A stretch of 5,466 nucleotides of DNA, taken from positions 1-5,466 of the IMG/VR virus record IMGVR_UViG_2675903538_000015. The stretch is one strand, 5' to 3'. The position numbers and the translations under genes are program-made. This document shows, piece by piece, positions 322 through 5,466 of this stretch (the first letter of the stretch is position 1; every line of letters starts with the position of its first letter). The notes beneath the pieces are model-generated. The model was given only the letters and a program-made list of their open reading frames with translations, did not search any database and was not told where the DNA came from. The stretch comes from a virus. Its lineage: Duplodnaviria; Heunggongvirae; Uroviricota; Caudoviricetes.

Positions 322-662
322 ATGTTTTCGAAATGGAAGGGTTTCTTCGCGGGAAATGTGTACCACGAGATCTGAAAGTGAATGAAACAAATGCTGAGTA
401 TCTGGTGCGTAAATTCGATGAAGTACGTGCTGAGGCTCGCAACGAGGGTATTAACTATACCGCAAGCCGTCTTGCTGCGGCTTTCAATCACGGATTTATC
501 AATAAGTCTTTACGTGAAGTTTTCGACGTTACACGCATGATTCTGTCAGCGAAAGAAGAGTTGGCTAATGAACCACACCCGATTGATGGCCTGTCCGGTG
601 AATATGCGGAGAAATCCCTAGAAGAATGGGCGGAACAGCTTCGCAAAGGAGGCAACCAGTGA
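312..662 (+). CDS. Hypothetical phage protein (116 aa), function unknown
   Basis: ORF with ATG at 312 (alternative ATG at 318 forms an ATGA overlap with the upstream stop at 319-321); GGAG at 300-303 upstream. Stop TGA 660-662 overlaps the GTG start of the next gene. Acidic, helical-looking sequence; no recognisable catalytic motif. Confidence 0.6.
   Translation: MRMNVFEMEGFLRGKCVPRDLKVNETNAEYLVRKFDEVRAEARNEGINYTASRLAAAFNHGFINKSLREVFDVTRMILSAKEELANEPHPIDGLSGEYAEKSLEEWAEQLRKGGNQ
645..652 (+). promoter_or_regulatory. Shine-Dalgarno (AAAGGAGG) for the Ea22-like gene
   Basis: Near-consensus SD 6 nt upstream of GTG at 659-661; lies inside the 3' end of the upstream CDS, consistent with translational coupling. 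Confidence 0.6.
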
Positions 663-1357
663 GCGAGATTAACTATCAGGCTCTGCGACTGGCGGCAGAA
701 AATGCAACACCAGGCGAATGGTGTGCTGATGACTACCATGGAGTAATTGCCGATGCCGGACTGAACGCCAATTACTACATAGCATCATGCTCAGGACCGG
801 ATAATCGCTCCAATAAACGATTCATAGCCGCAGCCAATCCGGCTACCGTGCTGGCACTGCTGGATGAGAACGAAAGCATGTGCCGCGACCTCATTGCTCG
901 CAATGGTGAGATTGAAGGGCTTCGAAAACTGGTTGCTGAACTTGAGGAGACAAAATCAAAACTCAACGAGCAGCGTGAATATTACGAAGGTGTTATCTCG
1001 GATGGAAGTAAGCGTATTGCTGAACTGGAGAAAAGCGAAGAGCAACTCATCAGCGAGCGAGATCATGCTGAGTCTGCTTTAGCTGATATGTATTTTGCAG
1101 CAACCGGGGATAGGCCGGAGTGGAGCAACTTGTTCGGCTTTTCAGATGCTGTAGATGCCGTGGTTGACAGAATTGCTGATTTAGAAGCTAAACAGCCATC
1201 GCCAGTAGTACCGGAAGGACTGATTAAAGCGGTGCGTTTTTATGAACAGGTAAAACGTGAGAACCCGCCAGTCGAAACAGGGGCATGGAAAGACGCTGTT
1301 GACTGGGTGCTCAAAGAGGCTTGCCAGGCTGTAAACATTGGCATCAAAGGAGAGTGA
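659..1357 (+). CDS. ead/Ea22-like family prophage protein with central coiled-coil
   Basis: Translation from GTG 659 begins (V/M)SEINYQALRLAAENATPGEW and contains FIAAANPATVLALLDE, a pattern I recognise from lambdoid ead/Ea22-like proteins, followed by a Glu/Leu/Lys-rich heptad-like segment (LRKLVAELEETKSKLNEQREYYEG...ELEKSEEQLISERD). The six-frame track starts at ATG 626 in the same frame, but GTG 659 has the much better SD. Ends TGA 1355-1357. Confidence 0.7.
   Translation: MSEINYQALRLAAENATPGEWCADDYHGVIADAGLNANYYIASCSGPDNRSNKRFIAAANPATVLALLDENESMCRDLIARNGEIEGLRKLVAELEETKSKLNEQREYYEGVISDGSKRIAELEKSEEQLISERDHAESALADMYFAATGDRPEWSNLFGFSDAVDAVVDRIADLEAKQPSPVVPEGLIKAVRFYEQVKRENPPVETGAWKDAVDWVLKEACQAVNIGIKGE
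1341..1357 (+). repeat. 17-bp direct repeat copy 1 (GCATCAAAGGAGAGTGA) at a gene junction
   Basis: Exact 17-mer identical to 1835-1851. It encodes the C-terminal -IKGE* of the Ea22-like protein and contains the SD (AGGAG) for the downstream gene. Confidence 0.85.
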
Positions 1358-1359
1358 GA

Positions 1360-1851
1360 ATGCAAATTTCACCGGTTACTCTTCGTGTTGCGAAGGCGTT
1401 TATATCCAGACATCACCGACACAATAAACCACCTGTTGGGCATAAATTCAGCATTGGTCTGATAAATGATGCCGGAGAATTGATAGGTGTGGCGACAGCT
1501 GGTCGACCTGTTGCACGACATTTGGACGATGGATTAACGCTTGAAGTAAATCGCACATGTACCACAGGAGAACGCAACGCTAACAGCGCGCTTTATGGTG
1601 CTGTCTGGCGGGCAGCAAAGGCTATGGGTTATCAACGTTGTATTACGTACACCCAGGCAGATGAATCAGGAGCATCTCTTCGCGCTGCTGGTTTTGTTCG
1701 TGTGAAAGAGCTTCCTCCAAGAAAAAGCTGGGCGGAATCAAGCGTCGCCCTGCGGAGTAAACGCGATCCGGTCGGAAACGGTGGTATTCCTCGTGTGCTC
1801 TGGGAAATCAGGAGAATGAGTACCACTGGCATTCGCATCAAAGGAGAGTGA
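1360..1851 (+). CDS. Hypothetical protein (163 aa) with GNAT-like acyltransferase-fold features; function unknown
   Basis: ATG at 1360, 7 nt after GGAG at 1349-1352; the track's 1321 start is an in-frame upstream TTG inside the preceding gene. The C-terminal half (NANSALYGAVWRAAKAMGYQRCITYTQADESGASLRAAGFVRV) resembles the GNAT motif A/B region (small-residue loop, then ...LY...GF). The N-terminus carries a basic His-rich patch (ISRHHRHNKPP). Ends -IKGE*, TGA 1849-1851. Confidence 0.65.
   Translation: MQISPVTLRVAKAFISRHHRHNKPPVGHKFSIGLINDAGELIGVATAGRPVARHLDDGLTLEVNRTCTTGERNANSALYGAVWRAAKAMGYQRCITYTQADESGASLRAAGFVRVKELPPRKSWAESSVALRSKRDPVGNGGIPRVLWEIRRMSTTGIRIKGE
1835..1851 (+). repeat. 17-bp direct repeat copy 2 (GCATCAAAGGAGAGTGA) at a gene junction
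   Basis: Exact copy of 1341-1357; again encodes C-terminal -IKGE* and the SD for the following gene (ATG 1853). Confidence 0.85.
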
Positions 1852-1852
1852 T

Positions 1853-2368
1853 ATGGCGTTAACACACCACGAACTCTGTCAGATTGCGTACAAGTTCCTT
1901 AAGCGCAACGGGTTCAAGGTTTGCTTTCATGACCGCTTTGTTGCTGTAACCAGTACCGGAGAACAGCCAGATGCTATGGGATTCAGAAATTCAGCATCAT
2001 GCCTGATAGAGGCGAAGTGTTCTCGTGCTGACTTGTTGGCAGATAGAAAAAAGCGTTTCCGTAAAAATCCCTCACTTGGCATGGGCGACTGGCGATTCTT
2101 TATTAGTGAGCCGGAAATTATTTCAGTTGAGGATTTACCTCCCGGCTGGGGATTACTTCACGTTGTTAACGGAAGAGTACGGAAAGTACATGGATGGCCC
2201 AGGGGTAATTGCTGTTGGGGTAATCCTGACGATAAGCCATTTACCGGGAATAAGCAGGTTGAATGCGATTACATGTTATCTGCATTAAGGCGCATGGAGC
2301 TAAGAGGACACCTTAATGAAATATATGACGGTGTAATTGTTAATAAGAAAGAAGGAAACGCAGCATGA
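1853..2368 (+). CDS. Putative PD-(D/E)xK nuclease-fold protein (171 aa)
   Basis: ATG 1853 is 6 nt after GGAG 1843-1846. The translation contains ...TGEQPDAMGFRNSASCLIEAKCSRADL..., i.e. an acidic residue, then PD, then about 12 residues, then E-A-K. This matches the spacing of the restriction-endonuclease-like PD-(D/E)xK core. Stop TGA 2366-2368 overlaps the next ATG (ATGA). Confidence 0.6.
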   Translation: MALTHHELCQIAYKFLKRNGFKVCFHDRFVAVTSTGEQPDAMGFRNSASCLIEAKCSRADLLADRKKRFRKNPSLGMGDWRFFISEPEIISVEDLPPGWGLLHVVNGRVRKVHGWPRGNCCWGNPDDKPFTGNKQVECDYMLSALRRMELRGHLNEIYDGVIVNKKEGNAA

Positions 2369-3408
2369 CCACTTTAACCGACAAAGAACTGATTAAAGAA
2401 ATCAGAGAGCGAATCGGCAGCCTGGACGTCCGAGACAATATTGAGCGTCGGGCTTATGAAATTGCTCTGGAATCGCTGGAAGCAGAACCAGTTGCTTATA
2501 TTTTCAAACATCCGGCCGGGAAATTATTCTGGGCTTTAACGGATGAAAGCAATAAAGAGCAACCGGACGTTATTCCTGTTTATGCTGACTCACCTGCGCC
2601 GGTTGTGCCGGATGAAATAGACGTAAACGATGTACCAAGGGCGGTGACATATTTCAAGACACACAGAGATTGTTACGCAGATGGCTGGAACGCCTGCCGC
2701 GCCGCCATGCTTCAGTCCGGAAACTTTCGGGAAAACAAGAATTCGTCAACCAATAATTTTCGGGAAATCGCGGAAACGTCAACCAACTATCCGGTAATTC
2801 CTAGTGAGGTGTTGTCCGCAATCCGGGAGGTTGCCAAGATTCGTGCCGATTTCGATGATTTTGACGGTGACAGGCGAGGTATCGGTGATTGTCTGGATGA
2901 GGCCGAGCAAGAGCTTATCGTTACCATTAACAAATATGCCAGTCAGTTGGCAGCAGAACCGATAGCGACTAATGACGTTCGAGAGCAGCAGACAGCCGTT
3001 CCGCCAGTTCCGGAAATACAGGATGATGTCGCGCAAGCAATTGAAAATCTCAAGCAGAAGTTAGTGGAATGCAATCGCTATAACTACTGCGCAGATGCAG
3101 TTAAAGGCGTAGAGGATGCCTGCCACGCTGCCATGCTTCAGGGTAGCCAACCTGTAAGCCAAACTTACAAGTTGCCAGTTAATACACCTTGCCAAGATGC
3201 GCCAGCCCATATCTGGCTGCAAACGGCTGGAGTATGGCCAGAAGATGGCGAGTTAAGTGAATTAACGTGGTGCAGCCACAATCAGCACCATGATGACACG
3301 CTATATGTTCGAGCTGACCTTGTGAATGGCAACTCTCCGGTAACTCCGGATAGTTGGATAAGCTGTAGTGATCGAATGCCGGACGACAGGCAGGAGGTGA
3401 ATCAATGA
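2365..3408 (+). CDS. Hypothetical prophage protein (347 aa) with an internal duplicated Cys-containing motif
   Basis: ATG 2365 follows GAAGGA at 2350-2355. Two copies of a related segment occur: CYADGWNACRAAMLQ and YCADAVKGVEDACHAAMLQ, with a 22/24 nt match at 2692-2715 versus 3118-3141. A low-complexity NFRENKNSSTNNFRE linker lies around 2724-2780. The C-terminus ends ...PDSWISCSDRMPDDRQEVNQ*. Stop TGA 3406-3408. Confidence 0.7.
   Translation: MTTLTDKELIKEIRERIGSLDVRDNIERRAYEIALESLEAEPVAYIFKHPAGKLFWALTDESNKEQPDVIPVYADSPAPVVPDEIDVNDVPRAVTYFKTHRDCYADGWNACRAAMLQSGNFRENKNSSTNNFREIAETSTNYPVIPSEVLSAIREVAKIRADFDDFDGDRRGIGDCLDEAEQELIVTINKYASQLAAEPIATNDVREQQTAVPPVPEIQDDVAQAIENLKQKLVECNRYNYCADAVKGVEDACHAAMLQGSQPVSQTYKLPVNTPCQDAPAHIWLQTAGVWPEDGELSELTWCSHNQHHDDTLYVRADLVNGNSPVTPDSWISCSDRMPDDRQEVNQ
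3392..3397 (+). promoter_or_regulatory. Shine-Dalgarno (AGGAGG) for the small hydrophobic ORF
   Basis: Consensus SD 7 nt upstream of ATG 3405; embedded in the 3' end of the upstream CDS. Confidence 0.5.
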
Positions 3409-3492: not shown

Positions 3493-3735
3493 ATGTTCGC
3501 TTTGATTCAACGCGGTCAGATATACACGGACAGAGCTGGATACCCCGTGGTGATTACTCGCATCACTGAGCACTCAGTGTTCTTTCGACGGATGGACGGA
3601 CGCTCCGGGCGGGTACGCATTGGTGAGTTAAACTGCCTGTTCGAACATATTGACCACCAGGAGTACCGCAAAATTCTCGCGGACACTGAGCAGGAAAAGC
3701 ACCTGAAAAAATTACGAGCCATAAAAAGGAAGTAA
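3493..3735 (+). CDS. Small hypothetical phage protein (80 aa), basic C-terminus
   Basis: Probable start at ATG 3493 (the track's 3457 start is an in-frame TTG upstream). Sequence MFALIQRGQIYTDRAGYPVVITRITEHSVFFRRMDGRSGRVRIGELNCLFEH... resembles small beta-rich prophage proteins found near integrases, possibly a DUF4222-like family; this is recalled, not verified. Ends TAA 3733-3735. Confidence 0.55.
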   Translation: MFALIQRGQIYTDRAGYPVVITRITEHSVFFRRMDGRSGRVRIGELNCLFEHIDHQEYRKILADTEQEKHLKKLRAIKRK

Positions 3736-3891: not shown

Positions 3892-4146
3892 ATGCAGACA
3901 ATCATCTATCAGATAACCCCCAGCAAATGGTGTACGGAGAGAGTCCTCATTGCATCAACAGGGCTAAAGCCTGGCACCATTGAGCGGGCAAGAAGAAAGT
4001 CATGGATGCAGGGAAAAGAATACCGCCATTACGCTGTAGAAGGTGATCCGGGGCACTACAGTGAATGCCTGTACAACATCGAAGAAATTATGCGATGGAT
4101 CGAAAACCAGAAACAACCAGGTGCCAAAAATGCAAGTTCCGGTTAA
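3892..4146 (+). CDS. xis: Putative excisionase / Xis-like DNA-binding protein (84 aa)
   Basis: Sits immediately upstream of the integrase in the same orientation. Small protein with Trp/Arg/Lys/Tyr-rich pattern (...SKWCTERVLIASTGLKPGTIERARRKSWMQGKEYRHYAVEG...YNIEEIMRWIEN) typical of winged-helix excisionase-like proteins. GAGG at 3884-3887 upstream of the ATG; TAA 4144-4146. Confidence 0.6.
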   Translation: MQTIIYQITPSKWCTERVLIASTGLKPGTIERARRKSWMQGKEYRHYAVEGDPGHYSECLYNIEEIMRWIENQKQPGAKNASSG

Positions 4147-4179: not shown

Positions 4180-5466
4180 ATGAGTAACGCATCATACCCG
4201 ACAGGCGTTGAAAACCATGGCGGATCACTCCGCATATGGTTTCACTATAACGGCAAACGTGTCAGAGAAAACCTCGGTGTTCCTGACACCGCCAAAAACC
4301 GGAAGATCGCAGGTGAACTTCGCACTTCCGTTTGTTTTGCAATCAGAATGGGGAGTTTCGACTACGCCGCGCAGTTCCCTAATTCCCCTAACCTGAAACA
4401 CTTTGGCTTGGGGAAAAGAGAGATAACAGTTAAGGCACTTTCGGAAAAATGGCTGGACCTTAAGAAAATAGAGATAGGAAGCAATGCATTCAGTCGGTAT
4501 CAATCCGTAGTGAGAAACATGCTTCCTCGCATAGGGGAAAAACGTCTTGCTTCGTCTGTAACAAAGGAAGATTTACAGTTTATCAGGAAAGATTTGTTAA
4601 CCGGGTATCATAATCTCTCTAATGGAAAAACAACGCCGGTTAAAGGGAGATCGGTAGTTACGGTTAATTACTACATGACGACAATTGCAGGAATGTTTCA
4701 ATTTGCTGCTGATAACGGCTATATCGGGTCAAACCCATTTAACGGGCTGACACCATTAAAGAGATCAAGAACAGAGCCAGATCCGCTCACGCGTGACGAA
4801 TTTATTCGCTTTATTGATGCCTGTCACCATCAACAAACGAAAAACCTGTGGTCCTTAGCAGTATACACAGGCATTCGTCACGGTGAGCTAATAGCTCTCG
4901 CCTGGGAGGATATTGATTTAAAAGCTAAAACAATGACTATCCGTCGTAATTATACAAAACTAGGGGAGTTCACTCTACCAAAAACAGAGGCGGGAACTGA
5001 TCGTGTTATTCATCTTGTTCAACCAGCTGTTGATGCCCTGAAAAGCCAGGCTGAAATGACAAGGTTTGACCAGCAATATCAAATTGATGTCAAACTGCGG
5101 GAGTTCGGACGCAGCACAAGCCATGAATGCACGTTTGTTTTTAATCCGCAACTGGTGAAAAAATGCCAGCACGTCGGCCACCACTATAAAGCAGATTCCA
5201 TCAGAGATTCCTGGGCATCTGCATTAAGGCGAGCAGGACTGCGGCACAGAAAAGCCTATCAGTCTAGGCATACTTATGCCTGCTGGGCATTATCGGCAGG
5301 AGCGAATCCAAGCTTCATAGCAAACCAAATGGGCCATGCAAATGCACAAATGGTATTCAACGTTTACGGCGCATGGATGGAAGATAACAATATCGGGCAA
5401 ATAGAACTACTCAATAAGCAGTTGACAGAGAGTGTCCCATACATGCCCCATAGAGCCAGACTCTGA
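4180..5466 (+). CDS. int: Phage-type tyrosine site-specific integrase (428 aa), complete
   Basis: GGAGG at 4171-4175 upstream of ATG 4180. Box I-like GIRHGELIALAWEDIDL; box II-like AYQSRHTYACWALSAGANPSFIANQMGHANAQMVFNVYGAW, with the predicted nucleophilic Tyr at codon 5365-5367 (TAC). Stop TGA 5464-5466 is the end of the window. Confidence 0.9.
   Translation: MSNASYPTGVENHGGSLRIWFHYNGKRVRENLGVPDTAKNRKIAGELRTSVCFAIRMGSFDYAAQFPNSPNLKHFGLGKREITVKALSEKWLDLKKIEIGSNAFSRYQSVVRNMLPRIGEKRLASSVTKEDLQFIRKDLLTGYHNLSNGKTTPVKGRSVVTVNYYMTTIAGMFQFAADNGYIGSNPFNGLTPLKRSRTEPDPLTRDEFIRFIDACHHQQTKNLWSLAVYTGIRHGELIALAWEDIDLKAKTMTIRRNYTKLGEFTLPKTEAGTDRVIHLVQPAVDALKSQAEMTRFDQQYQIDVKLREFGRSTSHECTFVFNPQLVKKCQHVGHHYKADSIRDSWASALRRAGLRHRKAYQSRHTYACWALSAGANPSFIANQMGHANAQMVFNVYGAWMEDNNIGQIELLNKQLTESVPYMPHRARL

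Follow-up and report, generated by a model that had tools for sequence, protein, structure and literature searches.

The locus considered here raises two questions, namely whether a small open reading frame with a nuclease-like motif, positioned directly downstream of a GNAT-like gene in a prophage accessory region, encodes a genuine PD-(D/E)xK protein, and whether the two genes work as a functional pair, as the original prediction had proposed on the basis of their adjacency. The stretch of DNA analyzed, referred to as the window, is 5,466 nt long and represents the early-left (exo-xis) accessory region of a lambdoid, Stx-phage-like prophage. Genes of this region such as ea22, orf60a, orf61 and orf63 affect lysogenisation and induction (PMC3824215, PMC7093339), and a modelling paper on exo-xis mentions no nuclease.

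Layout of the window

All genes in the window lie on the + strand, in the following order: the 3' part of a deoxynucleotide monophosphatase gene (61-321), an unknown ORF (312-662), an Ead/Ea22-like gene (626..1357; PF13935, E 2.4e-23) of a type that is also seen in the contexts of phages 1717 and P7 and among the upstream ORF clusters described below, an XF1762-family, Mom-related GNAT-like gene (1360..1851, 163 aa from the ATG at 1360), the target CDS (1853..2368), a mosaic gene with an Ea22-like N-terminal module and a DUF551-like C-terminal end (2365..3408), a DUF4222 gene (3493-3735), an excisionase gene (3892-4146) and an integrase gene (4180-5466) that ends at the window edge. Overlapping or 1-nt junctions between these co-oriented genes across the window give an operon-like arrangement, and no excess of promoter-like sites was detected within it. 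The idea that the target is a moron with its own promoter was rejected for want of such a signal.

The prophage of E. coli ARS-C301 is 99.7-99.8% identical to the window, the sole length difference being one unit fewer in ARS-C301 of a 33-nt (11-codon) imperfect tandem repeat at 2722-2787 (..NFRENKNSSTN / NFREIAETSTN..). In that prophage a truncated DUF72 gene abuts the integrase (L093 9808-11533), and the int-xis end of the window is common to 'PPyecE' and Stx1a phages at 93.7% identity; together, these two features point to a yecE-type integration site for the window prophage. The mosaic gene encodes 347 aa, and the PGAP annotation of ARS-C301 breaks it into three 'partial' pseudogenes (L093 8026-9027); related loci have 33 different versions of it, assembled from a few alternative N-terminal modules (MTTLTDKELIKEI.. 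or MITITKGRLLTIKQW..). As for the ORF at 312-662, which shares 37 nt with the beginning of the Ead/Ea22-like ORF (626-1357), its matches to phrog_614 and phrog_368 suggest that it may constitute the C-terminal module of a further mosaic protein of the Ea22 type.

The target ORF carries a conserved PD-(D/E)xK motif

The target ORF is intact, begins with ATG and encodes 171 aa. The predicted start 1 nt past the upstream stop proved exact, with the upstream TGA at 1849-1851 and the ATG at 1853, and at the other end the target TGA (2366-2368) overlaps the ATG of the mosaic gene (2365-2367) within an ATGA. The peptide on which the nuclease call had been based, TGEQPDAMGFRNSASCLIEAKCSRADL, comprises residues 35-61 and contains the motif as described, E37..P39-D40-x12-E53-A-K55, with 12 residues separating D40 from E53 (codons 1961-1963 for E37, 1970-1972 for D40, 2009-2011 for E53 and 2015-2017 for K55). 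This region, E37-Q-P-D40 ... E53-A-K55, spans 1961..2017 and is directly followed by a conserved helix, S57-R-x-D60-F/L-L-A-D64, with codons to about 2044. A short D..ExK pattern by itself could be a product of chance. We do not regard it as such here because it is conserved in two alignments: E37, D40, E53 and K55 are invariant among 36 homologs with at least 59% identity, and among 41 homologs reaching down to 33% identity D40 is still invariant, with E37, E53 and K55 at least 90% conserved. The same alignments revealed S57, D60, D64, K67, R70, G78, R81, W99, G100, E137, R146 and R147 as additional conserved positions.

The family to which the target belongs is sizeable, with 308 homologs in the 90%-clustered set and, at E<=1e-3, 2,553 representatives of 50%-identity clusters, including 1,232 at E<=1e-10. 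Pfam, NCBIfam and PADLOC scans of the target protein yielded no match (Pfam and PADLOC at E<=1), and PHROGs returned phrog_9263 and phrog_631, both of unknown function and corresponding to the family of P7 Upf89.0, in addition to a weak "DNA repair protein" match. Judged from these searches, the target appears to represent a large, phage-borne family that falls outside every Pfam model.

The predicted fold places the target close to MmcB-like proteins

Searching PDB sequences with the target alone gave noise, and a link to 3dnx emerged only with the family profile and structure comparison. An AlphaFold2 model from the 36-sequence alignment (pLDDT 84.9, pTM 0.80) comprises elements H5-18, E23-26, E41-45, E48-54, H58-64 and E80-85, which conform to the alpha-beta-beta-beta-alpha-beta core of PD-(D/E)xK proteins, with the acidic residue at strand 2 and (D/E)xK at strand 3 supplied by D40, E53 and K55. 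In this model D40 sits just ahead of strand 41-45, E53 within strand 48-54 and K55 right after that strand, positions from which we surmise that E37, D40, E53 and K55 would cluster in three dimensions. Foldseek against the PDB retrieved 3dnx (E 1.3e-5), with structural similarity over the whole chain, and the neighbors in BFVD, a set of predicted viral structures, include several phage proteins named MmcB-like. A family profile built from the diverse alignment also retrieved 3dnx from PDB sequences (E 2.3e-4), with Hjc as a weak match; the profile alignment pairs D40 and E53-x-K55, and then the SRxDFxAD helix, with the 3dnx segment RVDVMG..IECKSSRADFQAD. Thus, the restriction-endonuclease-like fold that had been claimed from the letters of the sequence was upheld by both profile and structure searches.

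The family DUF1052/PF06319, which takes its name from Caulobacter MmcB, has 3dnx as its structural representative (PMC3424549) and has earlier been tied to archaeal junction resolvases (PMC1189080). When the 41 family members were scanned individually, 23 touched Pfam Hjc weakly (best E 1.3e-4) and 12 touched Pfam MmcB-like, also weakly (best E 2.9e-4). None of these attained a gathering cut-off: for PF06319 (22 bits) relatives scored 13.3 and 17.4 bits and the target had no match at E<=1, and for PF01870 (21.1 bits) the best relative reached 20.5 bits, again with no match for the target. The MmcB-like alternative raised in the original prediction is thus borne out by the similarity to 3dnx and the weak family matches, but it falls short as a formal assignment, with 17.4 bits against the 22 of PF06319. 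We consider the target to be a predicted PD-(D/E)xK fold protein with MmcB-like/DUF1052 proteins as its nearest characterized relatives and archaeal Hjc as more distant ones, and its family to be a likely sister of PF06319, strictly not a member by the Pfam threshold.

These relatives differ from the target in several respects. MmcB-like/DUF1052 proteins (PF06319, COG5321; 3dnx, SPO1766; Caulobacter MmcB) have a structure similar to the target model over the whole chain, but the target family scores below their Pfam cut-off. Classical DUF1052 members are chromosomal and mostly alpha-proteobacterial (PMC3424549), whereas the target family is phage-borne, with its close members in enterobacteria. 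Caulobacter MmcB, a PD-(D/E)XK endonuclease induced in the SOS response, is reported to shield cells from mitomycin C and cisplatin (reviewed in PMC9578287); cross-link protection is known for this MmcB only, and for the target it would be a candidate role, by analogy. Archaeal Hjc (PF01870; 1hh1, 1ob8, 2wcw) shares the PD-(D/E)xK core, and its region from helix 1 to strand 3, including PD and ExK, aligns with the target family such that its D and ExK fall on D40 and E53-x-K55. Transfer of function from either MmcB or Hjc is weak since the target has no Pfam, NCBIfam or PADLOC match and its relatives remain below the cut-offs; nuclease activity, substrate and oligomeric state are thus properties that we infer for the family from alignment and model.

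The upstream neighbor is a mobile, Mom-related gene

The upstream protein, originally called GNAT-like, is indeed GNAT-like, but this label is generic and the protein is more exactly a Mom-related member of the XF1762 family, as judged by its score against NCBIfam NF045478 (204.5 bits, E 6.1e-61, curated cut-off 50) and its assignment to phrog_1384, Mom-like, in PHROGs. Against Pfam Mom (PF25680) it scored 23.5 bits, below the gathering cut-off of 27.1, with a match confined to profile positions 3-124 of 202. Mom is a DNA-modifying GNAT, and that of phage Mu has an essential C-terminal HTH-like insertion (PMC13219725), which the XF1762 protein, given the extent of the match, probably does not have. 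Mom of phage Mu needs no nuclease partner, and the XF1762 protein is related to it by PHROG and by the sub-threshold Pfam score. A literature search returned no papers on XF1762.

The XF1762 gene behaves as a highly mobile cassette (window 1360-1851; L003 2500-2991; L005 2500-2991; L094-L097). P2-like prophages (UTI89, O145 and others), phage-plasmids and another lambdoid prophage carry it at 97-98% nucleotide identity, and an 87%-identical copy sits in a genomic island, where the next gene is unrelated and encodes 155 aa. We considered whether this 155-aa gene could be a divergent homolog of the target and found it not to be homologous. In six of the seven sampled contexts the XF1762 gene is followed by an unrelated 87-aa gene, the product of which (WP_000224227/WP_000224220, MATLTKKERAWLNELQ...; e.g. 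L003 2993-3256, also L004 and L094-L097) is encoded across the same junction with the same 1-nt gap and gave no match in a Pfam scan. As a candidate partner of XF1762, the 87-aa protein may be preferable to the nuclease, or its gene may simply be another frequent cassette.

The two genes are inherited independently

Among 5,426 complete E. coli genomes, the target gene was found at 1,297 places in 928 genomes, with up to 6 places per genome, and the XF1762 gene at 169 places in 154 genomes; the two were adjacent in 10 records only. Accordingly, about 99% of nuclease copies are without XF1762 and about 94% of XF1762 copies are without the nuclease. A similar picture emerged in phages. Of the records in the phage collection, about 147 have a match that begins only at the junction and extends into the target, and none spans both genes, while among 80 IMG/VR loci encoding a protein 97-100% identical to the target, XF1762 was adjacent in one and elsewhere in the flank in one more. 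The genes flanking the target vary widely across loci, with 24 clusters of upstream ORFs, nearly all ending in ..GIRIKGE, and 33 clusters of downstream ORFs. In phages 1717 and P7 (Upf89.0) the gene just ahead of the target is Ead/Ea22-like, and the same type of gene holds this position in most other phages. We also inspected the contexts of seven divergent target homologs with 35-65% identity, and no XF1762 relative was near any of them; the settings included the nin region of a Providencia prophage and, in large phages, runs of small early genes.

In the Providencia prophage (L087 3957-5868), the homolog is 65% identical and has a Dam methylase gene and a Lar-like restriction-alleviation gene on one flank and RusA on the other. 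Because this homolog lies in a nin region, the target cassette appears to move between exo-xis and nin accessory regions.

The nuclease gene and the XF1762 gene are not a system. The co-occurrence check that the original prediction itself had named as capable of refuting a functional pair or two-gene module went against it, with 10 adjacent occurrences set against 1,297 and 169 places and one of 80 viral loci. The accompanying reading of the pair as an anti-defence or exclusion module finds no match in PADLOC-DB 2.0, in which neither protein hits any family at E<=1. A facultative interaction is possible, as ten adjacent occurrences exist.

A 22-nt boundary sequence probably accounts for the adjacency

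The junction repeat that had been noted at the start of the target is real. Its first copy (1336..1357, + strand, CATTGGCATCAAAGGAGAGTGA) forms the end of the Ead/Ea22-like gene ahead of the XF1762 gene, and its second copy (1830..1851, + strand, CATTCGCATCAAAGGAGAGTGA) encodes ..IRIKGE* at the end of the XF1762 gene and includes, at 1841-1846, the AAGGAG that is the Shine-Dalgarno sequence of the target; the two 22-nt direct repeats are 95% identical. Every border that we compared has the consensus CATTsGCATCAAAGGAGAGTGA in common. In the window these are the two borders of the XF1762 gene, with Ea22 ahead of it and the target behind it; in phages 1717 and P7 it is the border at which Ea22 meets the target, and in the P2-like prophage of UTI89 it is again each of the two XF1762 borders. 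In 67 of 83 loci this junction stands ahead of the target. It links the nuclease to upstream genes of 24 different kinds, and links XF1762 in turn to other genes downstream.

The junction combines the final ..IKGE codons and the stop of one gene with the AAGGAG that serves its successor, and is read most simply as a gene-boundary sequence prone to recombination. The 1-nt spacing and the shared repeat, which had been taken as a sign of coupling between the two genes, are both generic at cassette borders of this region and reflect cassette shuffling and translational coupling, not functional linkage. On this reading XF1762 adjoins the target here because its cassette was placed at two boundary copies, with the Ea22-like gene on one side and the nuclease gene on the other. 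With respect to Ea22 proteins, the end of the junction, AAA-GGA-GAG-TGA, reads K-G-E-stop and holds the AAGGAG of the next gene. The significance of the '+GE' C-terminal tripeptide of Ea22 proteins has been reported as unknown (PMC7093339), and the boundary sequence offers what may be a simple explanation of these K/R-G-E ends.

Discussion

Taken together, we believe it likely that the target is a genuine small PD-(D/E)xK nuclease gene that travels as a self-contained, shuffled exo-xis cassette, unpaired with XF1762, with a probable role in cutting branched or damaged DNA. The home of the cassette would be the exo-xis (early-left) accessory region in lambdoid, Stx and P1/P7-type phages, among others, and it would move between genomes via recombination at the conserved 22-nt boundary sequence. 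From the gene layout, we surmise that the target is expressed by translational coupling in a long same-strand operon, presumably early and alongside recombination functions (Red or nin). The product would be a Mg2+-dependent, probably dimeric, structure-specific DNA endonuclease in which E37, D40 and E53 bind Mg2+ and K55 completes the active site, and whose substrates, cut in the course of early replication and recombination, may be phage DNA that is branched or damaged (junctions, flaps, cross-link intermediates). Such an activity could possibly aid a prophage induced by DNA damage, with cross-link processing the more speculative part. Like the target, RusA and Rap/NinG of lambdoid phages are small accessory nucleases in early operons. 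RusA and Rap belong to folds and families unrelated to that of the target. In the Providencia prophage rusA adjoins the target homolog, and the location of this homolog next to a dedicated junction resolvase argues against a simply redundant resolvase role.

By this account the target family adds an unannotated phage subfamily to a kind of enzyme that is already known, and constitutes no new system. Placing it near MmcB and Hjc provides a concrete, testable enzymatic candidate for the poorly understood exo-xis region of Stx phages, uncoupling it from the Mom-like gene keeps a spurious "new two-gene system" from entering catalogues of defence and anti-defence systems, and the boundary-sequence analysis explains both the exchange of cassettes and why Ea22-type proteins end in K/R-G-E.

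Several other readings were weighed against that of an unpaired nuclease cassette. It is unlikely, in our estimate, that the nuclease acts solo in conflict, whether by degrading host or competitor DNA, by superinfection exclusion or as a counter-defence. The placement of the gene in a hypervariable accessory region, as is typical for conflict genes, its high copy number within single genomes and a fold shared with restriction enzymes and CRISPR-ancillary nucleases are all consistent with such a role; however, PADLOC has no match for the protein, its closest relatives are repair and resolvase families (MmcB-like, Hjc) rather than restriction enzymes, and the conservation of its sequence at 97-100% in 80 loci is unlike that of fast-evolving conflict genes. 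In addition, the gene shows no promoter signal of its own and is co-oriented within the early operon, which makes it probably silent in the lysogen.

A narrower version of the main reading, and one that we hold to be quite unlikely in this specific form, is that damage-induced temperate phages (Stx, lambdoid and P1/P7-type) carry an MmcB-type nuclease that unhooks or processes cross-links and stalled or branched intermediates on the phage genome. If true, replication would be better and, for Stx phages, so would the toxin-linked burst after mitomycin-type induction; the family would then form a phage branch of its own, still unannotated, within the MmcB/Hjc clade, with repair a new role for exo-xis genes.

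PD-(D/E)xK homing endonucleases exist, and the near-identity of target copies amid 24 upstream and 33 downstream gene types, in lambdoid, P1/P7-type and plasmid-borne phages, could be read as the work of a selfish enzyme that cleaves near the boundary sequence and thereby spreads its own gene, hence its constancy among changing neighbors. We find this very unlikely. The XF1762 cassette, which encodes no nuclease, is equally mobile with the same junction, so that recombination at the boundary sequence suffices to explain mobility; moreover, the single-domain model of 171 aa has no evident DNA-recognition domain, and distant homologs lie in ordinary strings of early genes.

The two-gene module, in which the XF1762/Mom-like acyltransferase would mark DNA and the nuclease would discriminate between marked and unmarked DNA as a restriction-modification-like exclusion or anti-defence device, has in its favor the 1-nt gap and shared junction in the window, the kinship of the neighbor to a DNA-modifying GNAT (PMC13219725) and the recurrence of the pair in 10 E. 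coli records and one IMG/VR locus. This proposal is largely refuted by the co-occurrence counts and we give it hardly any credence: nearly all copies of either gene are unpaired, the spacing and junction are generic, XF1762 usually stands ahead of the 87-aa gene, no relative of it was seen in the divergent contexts, and PADLOC matches neither protein. Furthermore, a nuclease that depends on a modifier would be toxic alone, yet this one is solo in more than 900 genomes. A restriction-modification-like scheme was rejected on account of this overwhelmingly solo occurrence. Just as improbable is that the fold is kept without nuclease activity, as a DNA-binding regulator of the lysis-lysogeny decision, for even though PD-(D/E)xK folds sometimes serve non-catalytic roles and other exo-xis genes influence lysogenisation and induction, as cited above, four catalytic-motif residues that are invariant or nearly so are not expected of an inactivated fold.

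Abundance and annotation of the target family

The target gene is carried by 17% of complete E. coli genomes, as well as by many Stx1 and Stx2 phages and P7, and its homologs are usually annotated as "hypothetical protein". More specific labels were also encountered. In E. coli ARS-C301 the target (L093 7514-7692, equal to window 1853-2031) is listed by RefSeq/PGAP as a 'frameshifted' pseudogene, though the 171-aa ORF is intact and identical; the P7 RefSeq record names the homolog 'minor tail protein', and in phage Lys8385Vzw the features under the target match include 'valyl-tRNA synthetase'. We regard the pseudogene, 'minor tail protein' and 'valyl-tRNA synthetase' labels as annotation artefacts. 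In E. coli and Klebsiella, truncated forms of the target are common (protein clusters P0052, 111 aa with 645 members, P0045 and P0081; and phrog_16308, 58 aa), suggesting that some prophage copies may decay frequently.
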